Below, one piece after another: positions 31,712 through 38,143 of a DNA stretch of 64,000 nucleotides. Location: assembly GCF_001677475.2 (NCBI RefSeq), contig NZ_CP015229.1. One strand, 5' to 3'. Within the stretch, counting starts at the first letter, position 1. Each line of letters begins with the position of its first letter. This DNA is from Escherichia coli. Lineage in GTDB: Bacteria > Pseudomonadota > Gammaproteobacteria > Enterobacterales > Enterobacteriaceae. Under the pieces are notes generated by a model. It had not been told where the DNA came from. It was given only the letters and a program-made list of their open reading frames with translations, and did not search any database. Position numbers and translations under genes: made by a program.

Positions 31712-32062
31712 TTAAAGCTGACCGACAGACTTTCTTAACCTGGTAATATCTCTCTTAGGTGACTCTCCAAACATCCGCGAATATTCCCGACTGAAATGGG
31801 ATAAGCTTTCGTAACCGACAGCATAGGCTGCAGTGGTGACATCGTAATGTTCATTCAGCATCGGTCGCCTGGCTTCATTGAGGCGTAGCCATTTCTGATA
31901 CCGGAGTGGACTCATTCCCGCAAGCTGTCTGAAGTGTTGATGGAAAGAGGGGGGTTCATTTGCACGCGGTTTGCCAGCCTGACTCTTCAACGCAGGGAAG
32001 ATGCGGCAAACGGCAAACCTGCATACCAGCCAGCCTATATCCGGTATGCACAGGCTAATCAT
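31712..32062 (-). pseudogene. yneL: AraC-family regulator fragment (HTH domain only)
   Basis: 116-aa ORF carrying only an AraC-type HTH (…LSHFSREYSRMFGESPKRD…) with no sensing domain; corresponds to the yneL remnant that flanks dif in K-12. Confidence 0.6.
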
Positions 32063-32141
32063 GAAAGAGGAGAGGCTTTATGTTCTTGAACCCTGAAGTA
32101 ATAACGACGACCGGAAAATCGCTTCGCATCACTCAAACTCA

Positions 32142-32169
32142 ATTTAACATAATATACATTATGCGCACT
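32142..32169. other. dif-like site, left junction (attL): host-like XerD arm, phage-like XerC arm
   Basis: ATTTAACATAA-TATACA-TTATGCGCACT; 27 of 28 identical to the reverse complement of E. coli dif (GGTGCGCATAATGTATATTATGTTAAAT, recalled); the single mismatch is the outermost base of the XerC arm. Confidence 0.85.
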
Positions 32170-32181
32170 AAGGTGCGCATA
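32160..32181 (+). repeat. 9-bp perfect inverted repeat of the XerC-binding arm
   Basis: TATGCGCAC-TAAG-GTGCGCATA; the left half is the XerC arm of attL, the right half an inverted copy; overlaps a 10-bp palindrome CGCATATGCG (32176..32185). Confidence 0.8.
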
Positions 32182-32202
32182 TGCGTATTCTGGAGGTGTG
32201 TC

Positions 32203-33066
32203 ATGGCTTGTACTCGTCCTTTGAACGCGTACCAAATGCCATCGGGGAAGATTTTTTTCACGCCGTCACGTGGCGCTAAATTCATTCAGTTGCCCTGTGG
32301 TCAGTGCATCGGTTGCCGTCTTGCTCATTCTCGTGACTGGGCGACCCGCTGCGTTCATGAAGCCCACATGCACGATCACAATTGTTTTATCACTCTGACT
32401 TATTCGCCTGAGAATTTACCTGAAGGCGGTACTCTCGTTCGTAAACATTTCACCGATTTTATGAAGCGTTTGCGTAAGGAATTAGATAAGGATGATGTGA
32501 AAATTCGTTATTTTGGCTGTGGTGAATATGGCTCTAAATTAGAGCGACCGCATTATCATGCGATTATTTTTGGTTATGATTTTCCGGATAAGACACTTTA
32601 TAAAGCGGGAAGATTTAATTTATTTAATTCCCCGCTTCTTTCGAGATGTTGGAATCTTGGTTGGGCTGTTATTGCTGGTTTTAGTTTTGAGTCGGCTGCT
32701 TATGTGGCGCGATACTGTGTTAAAAAAATCAACGGTTTCCGTGCAGATGAGCATTATGGACATCGCCTACCCGAGTTTTCGGCTATGAGTAATCGCCCAG
32801 GTATTGGGTATGATTTTTTTATGACCTATTACGAGGATATTGTTAATGCAGATGCGTGTATTGGTCGTGGCGGTCGTCAGATAAAACCGCCCCGCTATTA
32901 TGACAAGTTATTATCAGGCTGTGATTTGGAAAAGTTGCAGCAGAATAAAGAAAAGCGCCAGTTAAATGCCCGTGTATTAGACCCGTGGCGTTTGCAGGAT
33001 TTGGATAAGTTTAATCTGGTTAAATTCCAGCGAATGATGAGGAAATTAGAAGATGGCTCACTCTGA
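32203..33066 (+). CDS. Replication initiation protein (VP4, rolling-circle HUH endonuclease)
   Basis: Track ORF 32080..33066 trimmed to MACTRPLNAYQ… (287 aa) with GGAGG 6 nt upstream. Rolling-circle motifs: FITLTY, HYHAIIF (HUH), AAYVARYCVKK (catalytic Tyr pair), plus CGQCIGC. Confidence 0.9.
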   Translation: MACTRPLNAYQMPSGKIFFTPSRGAKFIQLPCGQCIGCRLAHSRDWATRCVHEAHMHDHNCFITLTYSPENLPEGGTLVRKHFTDFMKRLRKELDKDDVKIRYFGCGEYGSKLERPHYHAIIFGYDFPDKTLYKAGRFNLFNSPLLSRCWNLGWAVIAGFSFESAAYVARYCVKKINGFRADEHYGHRLPEFSAMSNRPGIGYDFFMTYYEDIVNADACIGRGGRQIKPPRYYDKLLSGCDLEKLQQNKEKRQLNARVLDPWRLQDLDKFNLVKFQRMMRKLEDGSL

Positions 33067-33322
33067 TGCAGTTTATGTAATTCATGACAAGCTGATTGCG
33101 GCTGATGTTTTTATGTTTATGGCCCAGCATGATGGTATTGCGAAAGGCAATTTGCACGCGTTCTGTAACCGTATGCAGCGCACTGACTTTGTGCTGTACC
33201 GTGTGACGGCTTATGACTTTGAAGACCAGCAGCTCGTCCCCGTGGACATTGACCGCGTTTATATTTGCACCGCTTTCCCTGCCATGCTGGAGAATGCCCA
33301 AGATGAAATCCTTGAAGCGTAA
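33053..33322 (+). CDS. Small phage protein, VP5-like
   Basis: 89-aa ORF overlapping the VP4 3' end and the VP3 start; assigned by size and position in the gokushovirus gene order, not by motif. Confidence 0.6.
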   Translation: MAHSDAVYVIHDKLIAADVFMFMAQHDGIAKGNLHAFCNRMQRTDFVLYRVTAYDFEDQQLVPVDIDRVYICTAFPAMLENAQDEILEA

Positions 33323-33815
33323 GTTCCATACCCGCTATGACCCGCCGCCGTCGCCCGGCATCGAGTTCAAAGAACCCACGATGACCCAGCAGCATTTCCG
33401 CGATGAGTGCGACATCAACAAGATTGTTGAGCGTGCGATAAGAACGGGAGATACGACAGTCTTTACCAGTGCTCAACGTGCTGATTTCTACGATGCATCT
33501 TCGATTACTGACTACGTGGACGCAATGGCTTTAATTGACGACGTTAACGACGACTTTAACAGCCTGCCGTCCACGATTCGCTCGATGTTTGGTAATAACG
33601 TTAAGCAGTACGTTGAGTGGATGAGTAATCCCGCGAACTGGAATAAAGCCCGTGAGCTTGGATTGTTGAGCGGCGGAGAGGAGTCGGCGACCGAACGCGC
33701 CAGCGTTCGCGAGTCGAGTCCTGCTCCGGCGTCCCCGCGGGAGCGTGAGCGGACTTCGGAGAGTTCCCCGAAGGGGGAGTCGGAGAAGTCTGCGAATAAT
33801 GATGCAGGCTCATGA
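33303..33815 (+). CDS. Internal scaffolding protein, VP3-like
   Basis: ORF 33213..33815; likely start MKSLKRKFHTRYDPPPSPGIEF… (33303, or 33294); acidic Ser/Glu-rich C-terminus. Assigned by position and size. Confidence 0.6.
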   Translation: MKSLKRKFHTRYDPPPSPGIEFKEPTMTQQHFRDECDINKIVERAIRTGDTTVFTSAQRADFYDASSITDYVDAMALIDDVNDDFNSLPSTIRSMFGNNVKQYVEWMSNPANWNKARELGLLSGGEESATERASVRESSPAPASPRERERTSESSPKGESEKSANNDAGS

Positions 33816-33855
33816 GCTGCATGAAAAAAACCTGAAGACGGCTCCGGCCCTTCAG

Positions 33856-33892
33856 CCTGGCACAGTGGCCCTCTTGATGTAACTGTGCCAGG
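33856..33892 (+). repeat. 11-bp perfect stem-loop in the VP3-VP1 intergenic region
   Basis: cctggcacagt-(15 nt)-actgtgccagg. Confidence 0.8.
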
Positions 33893-33904
33893 TGACACCG
33901 AAAC

Positions 33905-33932
33905 TTACAGGCGGCTCCCACGAAGCCTGTAA
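33905..33932 (+). repeat. 8-bp stem-loop in the VP3-VP1 intergenic region
   Basis: ttacaggc-(12 nt)-gcctgtaa. Confidence 0.75.
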
Positions 33933-33992
33933 AAAGGTGTCAGTTTATACAGTAGTTTGTGTAGTATTTAAACAATTCCCTGAGGGGGGTTT

Positions 33993-35705
33993 ATGAGTAA
34001 ATTCGGTCGTAAAGTACCTAGTAATGCAAAAAGTCAGCATAATTTTTCAGTAATCCCGAGTGCCAATATTCAGCGTTCGGTCTTTAACCGCAGCTCTGGT
34101 TATAAAACCACTTTTGACGCTGGTTATTTGATTCCCGTGTTTCTGGATGAGGCTTTGCCGGGTGATACATTCCACCTGAAAACGTCCATACTGGCGCGTT
34201 TATCCACGCCAGTGGTGCCGTTTATGGATAACCTGCGACTGGACATCCAGTATTTTTCCGTGCCCTACCGTCTGGTCTGGGATAACTGGCAGAAATTCAA
34301 CGGTGAACAGAAGAATCCTGGCGATTCGACGGATTACCTTATTCCGCAGATTAAAGCCCCTGCTGGCGGCTTCCCTGTAGGCTCCCTTGCCGATTATTTT
34401 GGTGTTCCCACAGGTGTGGAGAATATCAGTGTAAGCGCCCTGCCGTTCCGCGCTTATAACCTGATTTATAACGAGTGGTATCGTGATGAAAACCTGATTA
34501 ATTCCGCCCCGCTTCCGCTTGGCGATGAGGAAGAAACAGGCCTCGCCAATTTCCCGCTGCGTAAGCGTGCCAAGCGTCACGATTACTTCACAAGTGCTCT
34601 GCCGTGGCCTCAGAAGGGTGAAGGCGTTGAGATTGGTTTAGGCGTTCCGCCGTCGTATACGCTCGATTTCCCGACCTATCCTGATGGTCTGCCGTTTGTT
34701 TCTTATGGCGTTGGTGTCGATGGAGATATGACTTCGCACAATCCGACTTATCTTGCCCGTAATAATGTTAACGAAGGCTCATCATACGAGGCCTATGGTA
34801 ATGCGGTTTATATGAGTGACGGCAGGAATCCCAGCAATCCGCTGGAATGGCCTCCTATGTCGCCCTCCACTGGACGTATTGATGTTATTGGTGGTTTTAG
34901 CAGAAACCAGCCTCCGGTTACGTTAAATAAGCAAGGTGGTGAAGTTGTCGATAATCTGACAATTAACTCGCTGCGTCAGGCGTTCCAGCTTCAGCGGCTG
35001 CTTGAGCGCGATGCTCGCGGTGGTACTCGCTATATTGAGATTATCCGCTCCCACTTTGGCGTTATTTCGCCTGATGCCCGTGTACAGCGTCCCGAGTATC
35101 TCGGCTCTGGTTCATTCGACATAAATATTAATCCTGTTCTTCAAAACTCCGCGACGACCGACGCAAGTCCGCAAGGCAACCTCGCGGCCTATGGTGTCTC
35201 CGGTGGTGTTAACCGTGGATTTTCTCATTCTTTTGTGGAGCACTGTTTTGTTATTGGCCTTGTTAGCGTTCGTGCTGACCTGACCTACCAGCAAGGCATC
35301 CCGCGCATGTTCTCCCGCCAGACCCGCTTTGATTTCTACTGGCCTGCACTGGCTCACCTGGGCGAACAGGCTATCCTTAACAAGGAGATTTACGCGCAAG
35401 GCAACGACAAGGATGATGAAGTATTTGGCTACCAGGAACGTTACGCGGAGTACCGCTACCGACCGTCTCAGATTACTGGTAAATTGCGTTCTACCGACCC
35501 GCAATCCCTCGATGTGTGGCATTTAGCCCAGCGGTTCGACTCTCTGCCCGCACTGAATCAGGAGTTTATCGAGGAGAATCCACCGATGAAGCGCGTCCTC
35601 GCCGTACAGGACGAGCCTCAGTTCATCATGGATGCGTTCTTCGACCTGAAGTGTGTGCGGCCTATGCCTGTTTACTCAGTACCAGGTCTTATCGATCATT
35701 TCTAA
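33993..35705 (+). CDS. Major capsid protein (VP1, Microviridae F-protein family)
   Basis: 570-aa ORF MSKFGRKVPSNAKSQHNFSVIPSANIQRSVFNRSSGYKTTFDAGYLIPVFLDEALPGDTF…, closely resembling the conserved N-terminal block of gokushovirus VP1 (recalled Chlamydia-phage pattern …IQRS.F.RS.G.KTTFDAGYLIP…PGDTF…); RBS GAGGGGGG. Confidence 0.9.
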   Translation: MSKFGRKVPSNAKSQHNFSVIPSANIQRSVFNRSSGYKTTFDAGYLIPVFLDEALPGDTFHLKTSILARLSTPVVPFMDNLRLDIQYFSVPYRLVWDNWQKFNGEQKNPGDSTDYLIPQIKAPAGGFPVGSLADYFGVPTGVENISVSALPFRAYNLIYNEWYRDENLINSAPLPLGDEEETGLANFPLRKRAKRHDYFTSALPWPQKGEGVEIGLGVPPSYTLDFPTYPDGLPFVSYGVGVDGDMTSHNPTYLARNNVNEGSSYEAYGNAVYMSDGRNPSNPLEWPPMSPSTGRIDVIGGFSRNQPPVTLNKQGGEVVDNLTINSLRQAFQLQRLLERDARGGTRYIEIIRSHFGVISPDARVQRPEYLGSGSFDININPVLQNSATTDASPQGNLAAYGVSGGVNRGFSHSFVEHCFVIGLVSVRADLTYQQGIPRMFSRQTRFDFYWPALAHLGEQAILNKEIYAQGNDKDDEVFGYQERYAEYRYRPSQITGKLRSTDPQSLDVWHLAQRFDSLPALNQEFIEENPPMKRVLAVQDEPQFIMDAFFDLKCVRPMPVYSVPGLIDHF

Positions 35706-35722
35706 GTTACATTGTCACTTTT

Positions 35723-35745
35723 GGCCTCTGCGGAGGCCTTTTTTT
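35723..35745 (+). terminator. Intrinsic terminator/attenuator after the capsid gene
   Basis: ggcctc-tgcg-gaggcc followed by TTTTTTT. Confidence 0.7.
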
Positions 35746-35759
35746 CATGAGGTGAAATT

Positions 35760-36542
35760 ATGGGCTTTTTATCATCTGCCATTGGTGCCGCTGGTTCTAT
35801 TGCCGGCTCCCTGCTTGGTGCGAACTCTGCGAAGGATTCAGCTAACCGTGCCAATAAGTTAACGATGGATTTGGCCAAAAACGGCATCCAGTACCGTGTG
35901 CAGGATTTACGGAAAGCTGGCCTTAACCCCATTCTGGCCGTTACTGGTTCCGGTGGTCTTGGTTCCGTCAGTTCGTCAGGTATTCAGGCCGCCCAGCCTG
36001 CCGATTTTTCTGGTGTGGTTAATTCTGCGGTCAGCGTATTTGACGCATTAACGAAGCGTCAGCAGCAGGAAGTCGCTAAGGAAGGCATCATGTCCCAGAT
36101 TGCGTTACAACGTAACCAGATTGCGAATAGCGCGGCTGATGTGAAGCTCAAAGAGGCTCAGGCTGCGCAAGCCTTATCTTCCATTTCTACTGGTAATGCC
36201 CAGACTAATTTGATTAATCAGCAGGCTTTGACCGAGGCTTCCCGCCGTGCCAATATTGAAGCACAGACGGGCCTTAGTTCTGCGCAGCGGATTAGAACAC
36301 AGTATCAAACTGTACAGGACAAGGTTTTGGCTGATTATTTGAATACACCGATTGGAGCTGAAAGTGCACGTGTCAATATGGATGCTTCTCGCGGTGGTAT
36401 CGTTGGCGGCGTTAATACTTTTCTGCGTTCTTTGCAACGTGATTACCCGTCTAACTCGAACTCTGCGAAGAAAGTAAACAAGGGGGGAACCTTCCCCCCT
36501 TCACAGTTCCAACAGCAATTGATTAATAACTATCGGAGGTAA
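35760..36542 (+). CDS. Minor capsid / DNA pilot protein (VP2-like)
   Basis: 260-aa ORF with Gly/Ala/Ser-rich N-terminus (MGFLSSAIGAAGSIAGSLLGANSA…) and Gln/Ala-rich predicted coiled region; RBS GAGGTG; position after VP1. Confidence 0.7.
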   Translation: MGFLSSAIGAAGSIAGSLLGANSAKDSANRANKLTMDLAKNGIQYRVQDLRKAGLNPILAVTGSGGLGSVSSSGIQAAQPADFSGVVNSAVSVFDALTKRQQQEVAKEGIMSQIALQRNQIANSAADVKLKEAQAAQALSSISTGNAQTNLINQQALTEASRRANIEAQTGLSSAQRIRTQYQTVQDKVLADYLNTPIGAESARVNMDASRGGIVGGVNTFLRSLQRDYPSNSNSAKKVNKGGTFPPSQFQQQLINNYRR

Positions 36543-36543
36543 T

Positions 36544-36663
36544 ATGGCTCGTTCTCGCCGTCGTATGTCCAAGCGTTCTTCCCGTCGTTCGTTCCGTAAG
36601 TACGCAAAGACGCATAAACGTAACTTTAAAGCCCGCTCTATGCGTGGTGGAATTCGTCTTTGA
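36544..36663 (+). CDS. Small basic DNA-binding protein (VP8 / J-like), absent from the ORF track
   Basis: ATG at 36544, stop TGA 36661..36663; translation MARSRRRMSKRSSRRSFRKYAKTHKRNFKARSMRGGIRL (39 aa, roughly 40% Arg/Lys). Confidence 0.7.
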   Translation: MARSRRRMSKRSSRRSFRKYAKTHKRNFKARSMRGGIRL

Positions 36664-36693
36664 TTGACAAAGTTGATCGTAACGATCTATGAT
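36664..36693 (+). promoter_or_regulatory. Putative sigma70 promoter at the prophage right end
   Basis: TTGACA (36664..36669), 18-bp spacer, TATGAT (36688..36693); the spacer contains GATCGTAACGATC with two GATC sites. Pattern match only. Confidence 0.35.
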
Positions 36694-36716
36694 AATTATC
36701 GTAAGTCGTTGTTTTT

Positions 36717-36744
36717 GTTAAACTAAATATACATTATGCGCACC
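36717..36744. other. dif-like site, right junction (attR): phage-like degenerate XerD arm, host-like XerC arm
   Basis: GTTAAACTAAA-TATACA-TTATGCGCACC; XerD arm 7 of 11, central region 6 of 6, XerC arm 11 of 11 versus dif. Confidence 0.8.
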
Positions 36745-36820
36745 AACATAAACCAAGGGAGAATCCAGTCGTTGGCGGTCATGATTGTCCTGCTCATTAA
36801 CAACGGCCAAACCCCATATC

Positions 36821-38143
36821 TTACTTAATACCGTATTCTCGGCTTAACCGACGGTGCAACCTCAACACATTGGTTTCAACTGCCGTCACCACGTTCTTCG
36901 GAAAATCTGTCGGTAATGAAGTCTTCACGTTATCCAGTGCTGCCGGAATCATTCTGGCAAAGTCACTCAGGATTTCATGCATCTGCACTTCCGGAAATTT
37001 CAGCACCTTTGCTGTCGCCAGAAAATGTCGCGGATAAATTTTATCGATTGCCGTTTTTTTGCCTTTGGATGAGTTAAGCCCCATTGCCAGTTTGAGATCG
37101 CTAATGTGTATTCCTGCGCCACCCAATACCGGAAATGCTGAAATGATGTCGTAAAATGGCGTGAGTCGATAACTGCCGCCAGCCTGAATAAATACGGAGA
37201 AGTTTTTTGCATGGCCATCCGTTGCGCCAATCAACCACTGGAACACCTGAAACTTCATAAAATCATAGCGATCTTTCAGCGCCTCGCTGGACCCCATCAA
37301 AAAAGCCATGATCCGCGCGATACCTGGGCCTCCATCTGATTCATATTTCACCGATGAAGGTAAACCGAATGTCTGACACATATCCTCCTGTGGCAAGCGA
37401 AGTAAAACCGTTCGCTCAGCATTCCAACGCCTGTCAAAACGTTCGACCGCTAACGCACGCACATTTCCCGCTTTAATGATTTCTGCGTCCGGCACATTCA
37501 ACCCAAGTTCTTTCGCCAGCAGCAGACAGTAATACTCATTATCAACGCTTTGGCTGAGATCGAGCGTCGCATTGGGCTGCCTGATTTCGCCAATCGGTAA
37601 TTTAATGATGTGTGTCGTCGGCGTTATTCCTTTCGGAATGCACCAGTCATTGCCTATTCTGAGCAGCGCTGTCTTCTCCTGCGCGCCAGCAACCGAGATG
37701 CGAAAGTCATTTTCTTCTCTAATCATGCCTAGAGGGATATCTGCTTTATAAGCCGTTAATACTTCTTCAAGCCTGGCTTCAGTGAGCTGCTCCCATGCCA
37801 TTATCGGGCGCGTTATGGTTTCATTTTCGGGTAATAACGTTACGGCACCAACGCTGTCTCGCCCTATTTCTGACAATAAATCAAACGGTTGTCTGGATTT
37901 AGCATGATAACGTTTAACGATCCGGTCACGTACAATCGGGCTATCGGGTAGCAGGTTATCGAAGAAGTTAAATACGGCATCAGAGGTGATATTCCCCCTC
38001 TGCAATGGCAGCGAAAGTGACAACGGTCTGGCATAACGGTTAGCTAACCACTCCGGTGCATACTTAAAGGTGTGCGCGCCATTGGCTAACTTCGTTAACT
38101 CGCCTACCCGCTGGTTGTTCATCCAAGTGACAAGTTTAGGCAT
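36821..38143 (-). CDS. hipA: Ser/Thr kinase toxin HipA
   Basis: ORF 36821..38200 trimmed to MPKLVTWMNNQRVGELTKLANGAHTFKYAPEWL… (440 aa); start overlaps the hipB stop by 1 nt. Confidence 0.92.
   Translation of the reverse strand: MPKLVTWMNNQRVGELTKLANGAHTFKYAPEWLANRYARPLSLSLPLQRGNITSDAVFNFFDNLLPDSPIVRDRIVKRYHAKSRQPFDLLSEIGRDSVGAVTLLPENETITRPIMAWEQLTEARLEEVLTAYKADIPLGMIREENDFRISVAGAQEKTALLRIGNDWCIPKGITPTTHIIKLPIGEIRQPNATLDLSQSVDNEYYCLLLAKELGLNVPDAEIIKAGNVRALAVERFDRRWNAERTVLLRLPQEDMCQTFGLPSSVKYESDGGPGIARIMAFLMGSSEALKDRYDFMKFQVFQWLIGATDGHAKNFSVFIQAGGSYRLTPFYDIISAFPVLGGAGIHISDLKLAMGLNSSKGKKTAIDKIYPRHFLATAKVLKFPEVQMHEILSDFARMIPAALDNVKTSLPTDFPKNVVTAVETNVLRLHRRLSREYGIK

Follow-up and report, generated by a model that had tools for sequence, protein, structure and literature searches.

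Between the genes for the major capsid protein and the DNA pilot protein of a small prophage in Escherichia coli lies a GC-rich hairpin followed by a run of T residues, and the locus raises the question of whether this element stops transcription inside the structural gene unit and, if so, what this would mean for the genes behind it. We analysed the element within a stretch of 64,000 nucleotides, hereafter the window. The element belongs to an Enterogokushovirus prophage that is related to Escherichia phage EC6098 and is located at dif next to hipA. Its DNA is about 92% identical to that of EC6098 (genus Enterogokushovirus), and the same prophage occupies the same locus in six complete E. coli genomes. 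It is a member of the dif-integrating prophage family that was described in eLife in 2020 (PMC7062461). The left border is formed by the bacterial dif (32142-32169, minus strand), with one mismatch to the E. coli consensus, and the right border by a phage-derived dif-like motif (36717-36744, minus strand) that matches the left dif at 23 of 28 positions; the layout in the EC6098 paper likewise has the bacterial dif upstream and the phage dif downstream (PMC7062461). An AraC-type gene and fimbrial genes flank the prophage on the left, and hipA flanks it on the right.

The gokushovirus cassette lies on the plus strand and comprises Rep/VP4 (ORF 32080-33066, likely start at 32203), VP5 (33053-33322) and the VP3 scaffold gene, which ends at 33815. 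They are followed by the 570-residue major capsid protein VP1 (33993-35705, with the TAA at 35703-35705; Pfam PF02305 Phage_F, E=1.7e-184; PHROG 514, major head protein) and the 260-residue DNA pilot protein VP2 (35760-36542; PHROG 8693, pilot protein for DNA ejection, E=1.8e-17), the start of which is identical to that in the RefSeq/GenBank annotations of relatives. The last gene encodes VP8, an arginine-rich, putative DNA-binding protein of 39 residues (36544-36663), homologous to the annotated vp8 of EC6098. At the left border, the bacterial dif overlaps a 9-bp inverted repeat, TATGCGCAC..GTGCGCATA (32160-32181), which is built from the XerC arm of dif and the first phage bases. The in-frame ATG at 32161, the VP4 start in the EC6098 record, falls inside dif, and a far better Shine-Dalgarno (SD) sequence (GGAGGTG) precedes the RefSeq-style start at 32203.

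The element between VP1 and VP2 (35723-35745, plus strand) reads GGCCTC-TGCG-GAGGCC followed by T7. Its left arm (35723-35728), UNCG-type tetraloop (35729-35732) and right arm (35733-35738) form a stem of six perfect pairs, five of them G-C, and the T7 tract (35739-35745), the U-tract of the transcript, abuts the stem with zero gap. In the RNA fold, the hairpin has a free energy of -11.7 kcal/mol and accounts for 0.98 of the ensemble. A 17-nt spacer (35706-35722) separates it from VP1, so that the hairpin begins 18 nt past the VP1 stop TAA on the same strand; in the alignment, this spacer varies in sequence and in length, from 5 to 30 nt among relatives. The VP2 ATG at 35760 is 14 nt past the T-run, and six of those nucleotides belong to the SD sequence GAGGTG (35749-35754), which is conserved in the alignment and lies 5 nt before the ATG. 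The preliminary description had placed the VP2 ribosome-binding site 9 nt after the terminator; its actual start is 3 nt past the T-run and 10 nt past the stem. On the opposite strand, the hairpin is followed by AAAAGTG, the upstream flank being CACTTTT and not an A-tract, and the terminator is therefore unidirectional. The locus thus holds, on the coding strand and past a stop codon, a stem-loop with an abutting U-tract, and the structure is conserved in relatives as described below. The GC stem and T7 between VP1 and VP2 in the preliminary description are read directly at these positions, and its view that they form a canonical intrinsic terminator after the major capsid gene agrees with the anatomy, position, strand and comparative evidence.

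Two other features of the same region were considered and dropped. In the minimum free energy fold of 35700-35765, an outer helix pairs UCACUUU with the VP2 SD region GAGGUGA, which would sequester the SD; its z-score is only -1.6, and the SDs of relatives pair with different, non-homologous pyrimidine stretches, so that this is not a conserved structure. A mini-ORF, ATG-AGG-TGA (35747-35755), overlaps the SD and is not conserved in strain C5.

The element stands out from its surroundings. When both strands of the window were scanned with strict criteria (a perfect 6-bp stem with at least five GC pairs, a loop of 3-8 nt and at least seven T in the next eight positions), 35723-35745 was the sole match, and 30 first-order Markov simulations of the window yielded none. 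An independent consensus terminator scan also lists it. No other strong terminator is present on the coding strand of the prophage, the next best hairpin having -6.5 kcal/mol as compared to -11.7 kcal/mol. A search of 31900-36900 on both strands with the Rfam 15 covariance models gave zero matches at E<=1.

Conservation was assessed in an alignment of nine enterogokushoviruses (the window prophage, EC6098, the marmot microvirus mar4 and six E. coli prophages), the most divergent of which share about 84-86% genome identity. All nine have the same two stem arms, and the T-run is nearly as constant, with T7 throughout except for T6 in one or two genomes (in C5, T6 and then A). The sequences around them change: upstream, the spacers of mar4 and C5 can hardly be aligned, and downstream, 30 nt are inserted between the T-run and the SD in C5. 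Variation in the loop is confined to the second base, giving TGCG, TCCG or TTCG, and all three are UNCG tetraloops closed by C-G. Such C-G-closed tetraloops stabilise RNA hairpins, and not notably DNA hairpins. The stem is also intact in three IMG/VR contigs (L009-L011), including one at 79% VP1 identity (L011), and in five metagenome enterogokushovirus contigs. A metagenome scan for stem variants with the downstream anchor TTCATGAGGTGAAATTATG gave 24 matches and no new variation; 19 of the 24 are chance occurrences of an SD plus ATG, and five are enterogokushoviruses with the intact stem. Judging from these comparisons, the stem and T-run are under purifying selection amid variable spacers and a variable loop.

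In outgroups at 61-65% VP1 identity, the sequence is replaced and the structure is kept, with a different hairpin at the same position and a T-rich tract after each. The hairpin is AGGCTCC-CGCG-GGAGCCT followed by TTATTT in L012, AGGCGTCCC-CCCG-GGGACGCTT followed by T8 in L013, and ACGGCCTC-TCA-GAGGCCGT followed by TTTGATATTT in Robin microvirus RP_37. MG945583 and MG945479 share AAGGGGG-loop-CCCCCTT followed by ATTTTTAT, and in MG945491 (L092), where the arms are swapped relative to these two, it is ATACCCCCTT-GTT-AAGGGGGTAT followed by CTTATTAT. CGGCCTC/GAGGCCG is also found among the stems of relatives at this distance. The stem lengths and registers differ such that MAFFT cannot align them, and the stems were therefore compared by eye and by folding each sequence. 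In all, at least five unrelated stem sequences occupy the VP1-VP2 position, each with a T-tract, and the stabilities of the outgroup hairpins all fall between -10.8 and -14.7 kcal/mol. In several relatives, the hairpin begins only 5 nt past the VP1 stop.

Under one fixed criterion for the clade (-8 kcal/mol or lower and at least five T in eight), the motif is present in the VP1-VP2 spacer of 12 of 13 genomes, and a T6-T8 or T-rich tract is likewise found in 12 of the 13 members. On the coding strand, this amounts to 12 matches in 743 nt of VP1-VP2 spacer and 17 in 60,513 nt elsewhere, an enrichment of about 58-fold. The 87-nt spacer of MG945491 (3418-3504) holds two GC hairpins. The first, CCCCCTT..AAGGGGG as compared to AAGGGGG..CCCCCTT in the sister genomes, is a wholesale inversion of the arms; the second, ATGGGGGG-ATAAA-CCCCCCAT, is without a T-tract.

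Beyond this clade, the arrangement disappears. Among 75 more distant IMG/VR gokushoviruses (L014-L088; 56-61% VP1 identity), a VP2 can be recognised after VP1 in 57, not one of which carries the terminator motif in the VP1-VP2 spacer; the VP1-VP2 gaps are mostly 6-23 nt. The post-VP1 terminator is therefore specific to its lineage and was not inherited from an ancestor shared with phiX174; as far as the sampled genomes tell, it is a trait of the lineage containing Enterogokushovirus and is not general to gokushoviruses. The strong coding-strand motifs of the distant genomes are concentrated elsewhere, in the 100 nt that follow VP3 and shortly precede VP1 (28 cases), which suggests that many gut gokushoviruses end a transcript after VP3, upstream of VP1. 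These post-VP3 terminators are likewise strong coding-strand hairpins with a T-tract in small circular genomes, as compared to which the Enterogokushovirus clade would have moved the stop to, or added one on, the far side of VP1. Across L014-L088, hairpin plus T-tract motifs are about four times commoner on the coding strand (160 vs 39), a bias to which the T-richness of the viral strand may add.

The closest functional parallel is found in phiX174, where short GC hairpins with a U-tract likewise separate structural genes within the polycistronic unit of a member of the Microviridae, and expression of the genes further down relies on read-through. In an RNA-seq study of phiX174, T_J, T_F and T_G were each found to block 20-40% of transcription and T_H about 70%, and the message fell stepwise along J-F-G-H (bioRxiv 10.1101/2020.03.05.979765). 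As a positive control, our scan applied to phiX174 recovered two of the mapped terminators, T_J (GGGGC-TTCG-GCCCC, -9.6 kcal/mol) and T_H (GCCTCCAA-ATC-TTGGAGGC, -11.6 kcal/mol, with T6 and then the ATG of gene A). The prophage element shares with T_J a tetraloop of the C(UUCG)G kind, which in T_J sits on a 5-bp GC stem, and with T_H its stability (-11.7 vs -11.6 kcal/mol), although its perfect T7 is longer than the T6 of T_H; with T_F it shares the position after the major capsid gene. On the other hand, phiX174 belongs to another subfamily and has a staircase of four terminators, whereas a single strong one is present here, and the gene that follows the phiX174 capsid gene encodes the spike, whereas here it encodes the pilot protein, the H homologue. 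The phiX174 F-G spacer has no sequence similarity to the prophage terminator and, together with the absence of the motif from 57 of 57 other gokushoviruses, this means that there is no homology to T_F; by sequence comparison, the element is analogous or convergent rather than descended from T_F. In its build, it resembles canonical Rho-independent terminators of E. coli, which have a GC stem of 5-14 bp, a tetraloop and seven or eight abutting U just past a stop codon, and differs from them in lying inside an operon, 3 nt before the next ribosome-binding site, and not at the operon end.

Given this position, the supply of VP2 and VP8 message depends on where transcription could begin. A candidate sigma-70 promoter, GTGTCA-17-TGTAGT, lies upstream of VP1 on the plus strand (33937-33965; 1752-1780 in L001), matching the consensus at 8 of 12 positions; in EC6098 it reads GTGTCA-17-TATAGT and matches at 9 of 12. 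This weak consensus match lies in a block that hardly varies, some 30 nt before VP1, and would start a VP1-terminator-VP2-VP8 unit; overall, promoter-like matches in the phage do not exceed chance (7 observed vs 5.2 expected). Between the T-run and the VP2 ATG there is no consensus match that could serve as a VP2 promoter within or after the terminator, and with only 14 nt available a separate VP2 promoter is excluded. With no room for a promoter past the T-run, all VP2 and VP8 message must therefore read through the terminator, and since both genes depend on this read-through, termination must be leaky. The pilot protein is among the conserved components of the virion (PMC11980548), and as VP2 is encoded only behind the hairpin, this too means that termination would have to be incomplete. 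The preliminary description had proposed partial termination as a means of setting the ratio of capsid to pilot protein; given this gene order, read-through would be obligatory, and partial termination is a sound inference from it.

We consider it probable, on balance, that the element is a functional, leaky Rho-independent terminator that ends the VP1 message and attenuates VP2 and VP8 relative to VP1 in the rightward lytic message. RNA polymerase would transcribe VP1, the nascent RNA would fold into the 6-bp GC hairpin with its UNCG tetraloop, and the U7:A7 hybrid would release the transcript 3 nt before the VP2 ribosome-binding site. This would yield VP1 message in abundance, its 3' end protected by the hairpin, and the minority of polymerases that read through would be the sole source of VP2 and VP8 message. 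In this way, the terminator would lower VP2 and VP8 relative to VP1, acting on the rightward message during lytic growth.

By analogy with phiX174, it is plausible that the terminator sets the capsid-to-pilot stoichiometry and would have selective value through the VP1:VP2 ratio, and two observations weaken this idea. VP8 is the counterpart of the abundant DNA-binding protein J (PMC11980548), and the location of this presumed J homologue behind the terminator is a misfit with the simple logic that fewer copies are needed. In addition, most gokushoviruses build the same kind of capsid without a VP1-VP2 terminator; with none of the 57 distant genomes carrying the motif, the capsid:pilot ratio can therefore be set otherwise, such as by translation. 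A hairpin of this stability followed by U7 resembles T_H, with its block of about 70%, and the supply of VP2 and VP8 could thereby become very low. The attenuation of VP2 may thus be real and yet need not be the reason why the terminator is kept; a stable 3' end of the VP1 message is an equally simple benefit. In a broader and more tentative reading, which we regard as unlikely, the Enterogokushovirus lineage alone among the sampled gokushoviruses would have opened a spacer of 40-90 nt and installed an E. coli-style terminator, convergent with phiX174, where read-through sets not only VP2 and VP8 but also the re-entry of transcription into the replication genes, because this would be the sole strong terminator on the circular genome. 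In this reading, translation of VP1 might also tune the terminator, given that in some relatives the hairpin is only 5 nt past the stop.

Other explanations of the hairpin have to be weighed against the leaky terminator. That it is a chance palindrome next to a T-run without function draws on the count of terminator-like motifs over the whole 12-kb region, which is only mildly above that expected from shuffles (18 vs 11.7); it is at odds with the uniqueness of the element under strict criteria, with an invariant stem amid variable flanks and with unrelated stems maintained at the same position in diverged relatives, and this reading, which we hold to be extremely improbable, is effectively refuted by the comparative data. 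A role mainly as a stabiliser of the mRNA 3' end or a processing barrier, by which VP1 would be raised through message stability and not through stopped polymerases, overlaps with the leaky terminator rather than excluding it. The conservation of a very stable C(UNCG)G tetraloop hairpin and the narrow band of hairpin stability across unrelated sequences speak for such a role, as does the description of the phiX174 terminator regions as mRNA-stabilising, reportedly made by Hayashi and Hayashi in 1985. Stabilisation alone, however, would require no T-tract next to the stem, and such a tract is conserved in 12 of 13 genomes; we judge this reading unlikely as the main function. Less likely still is a full stop of the main transcript, with VP2 and VP8 expressed by some other route, such as regulated antitermination or ribosome-coupled suppression, in which the ribosome that completes VP1 closely trails the polymerase. 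The element is the sole strong coding-strand terminator in the genome and equals or exceeds T_H, the strongest in phiX174, and where the hairpin begins 5 nt past the VP1 stop, as in several relatives, a terminating ribosome would cover the left arm. However, the distance from stop to hairpin is not conserved (5 to 30 nt), the 17 nt seen in the window should keep the stem beyond the reach of a terminating ribosome, and there is no antiterminator candidate among the six small genes.

The hairpin could also act in the packaged single-stranded DNA, either in complementary-strand priming of the type of the G4 origin or the phiX174 PriA site, or as a signal for packaging or condensation. Since the viral strand is of mRNA sense, the hairpin can form in virion DNA, and in the Bullavirinae complementary-strand signals sit after the capsid gene, in the F-G intergenic region of G4 and phiX174. 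The window hairpin moreover holds CTG, the DnaG recognition triplet, in CTCTGCG; this triplet is lost in the UCCG and UUCG loop variants, however, and only a single hairpin is present, so that neither the conserved CTG nor the multi-hairpin array of a G4 oric or phiX174 PriA-type origin is found. All loop variants stay in the UNCG class, whose stabilising effect is seen in RNA and is not notable in DNA, and the 3' T-tract, a terminator hallmark, is conserved even where the stem sequence has been replaced. A better candidate for such a function is the far more elaborate multi-hairpin region between VP3 and VP1, which is nearly invariant and has a z-score of -4.6 as DNA, and we regard a single-stranded DNA role for the VP1-VP2 hairpin as very improbable.

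The VP3-VP1 spacer itself (33816-33992, 177 nt) is conserved above the surrounding coding DNA in the nine enterogokushoviruses. As single-stranded DNA, it is predicted to form three or four hairpins with a total of -34.1 kcal/mol: CTGAAG..CTTCAG, an 11-bp stem CCTGGCACAGT..ACTGTGCCAGG at 33857-33893, and GTGACACC enclosing CTTACAGGC..GCCTGTAA. Complementary-strand origin and packaging signal are both candidate functions for the spacer, within which the candidate VP1 promoter also lies. We found no description of this spacer in the EC6098 paper (PMC7062461).

The same paper makes no mention of a terminator, hairpin, stem-loop, intergenic element or transcription (PMC7062461), and the searchable literature yielded no description of the transcription of EC6098-type phages. 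More broadly, we found no described gokushovirus terminator or transcript mapping in the literature searched, to which the subscription-only papers on SpV4, Chp2 and phiMH2K did not belong. The VP1-VP2 terminator is thus a previously unannotated example of a well-known kind of signal, working like the phiX174 intercistronic terminators; being a signal of an expected kind, it adds annotation rather than a new principle. It reveals a regulatory layout specific to one lineage and not general to the subfamily. Among the gokushoviruses of E. coli, only the EC6098-type phages can be cultivated and are genetically tractable, and the conserved capsid-pilot terminator offers a mutable handle on how expression is apportioned in a six-gene single-stranded DNA phage.

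Two further features were noted at the right end of the prophage. A near-consensus sigma-70 promoter-like site, TTGACA-18-TATGAT (11 of 12 positions), lies on the plus strand between VP8 and the phage dif (36664-36693). It is present in the window, EC6098, MEI7BO1 and E9, and its deletion in PSS15, C5 and mar4 rules it out as a universal phage promoter. In the circular phage, this predicted promoter would read through dif into VP4, and after XerCD integration it sits at the extreme right of the prophage, facing hipA and separated from VP4. Its displacement from VP4 by integration could help to silence the replication genes in the lysogen.

Near the 3' end of VP2, within the coding sequence, lies a 9-bp GC palindrome, AAGGGGGGAACCTTCCCCCCTT (36480-36501, -16.3 kcal/mol), which the scan scores as a terminator-like motif of the minus strand. 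It falls in a part of VP2 that was termed hypervariable in the eLife paper (PMC7062461), and in the IMG/VR relative L010 a similar palindrome, AGGGGGGATTCTTCCCCCCT, is followed by GTTTTT on the plus strand.
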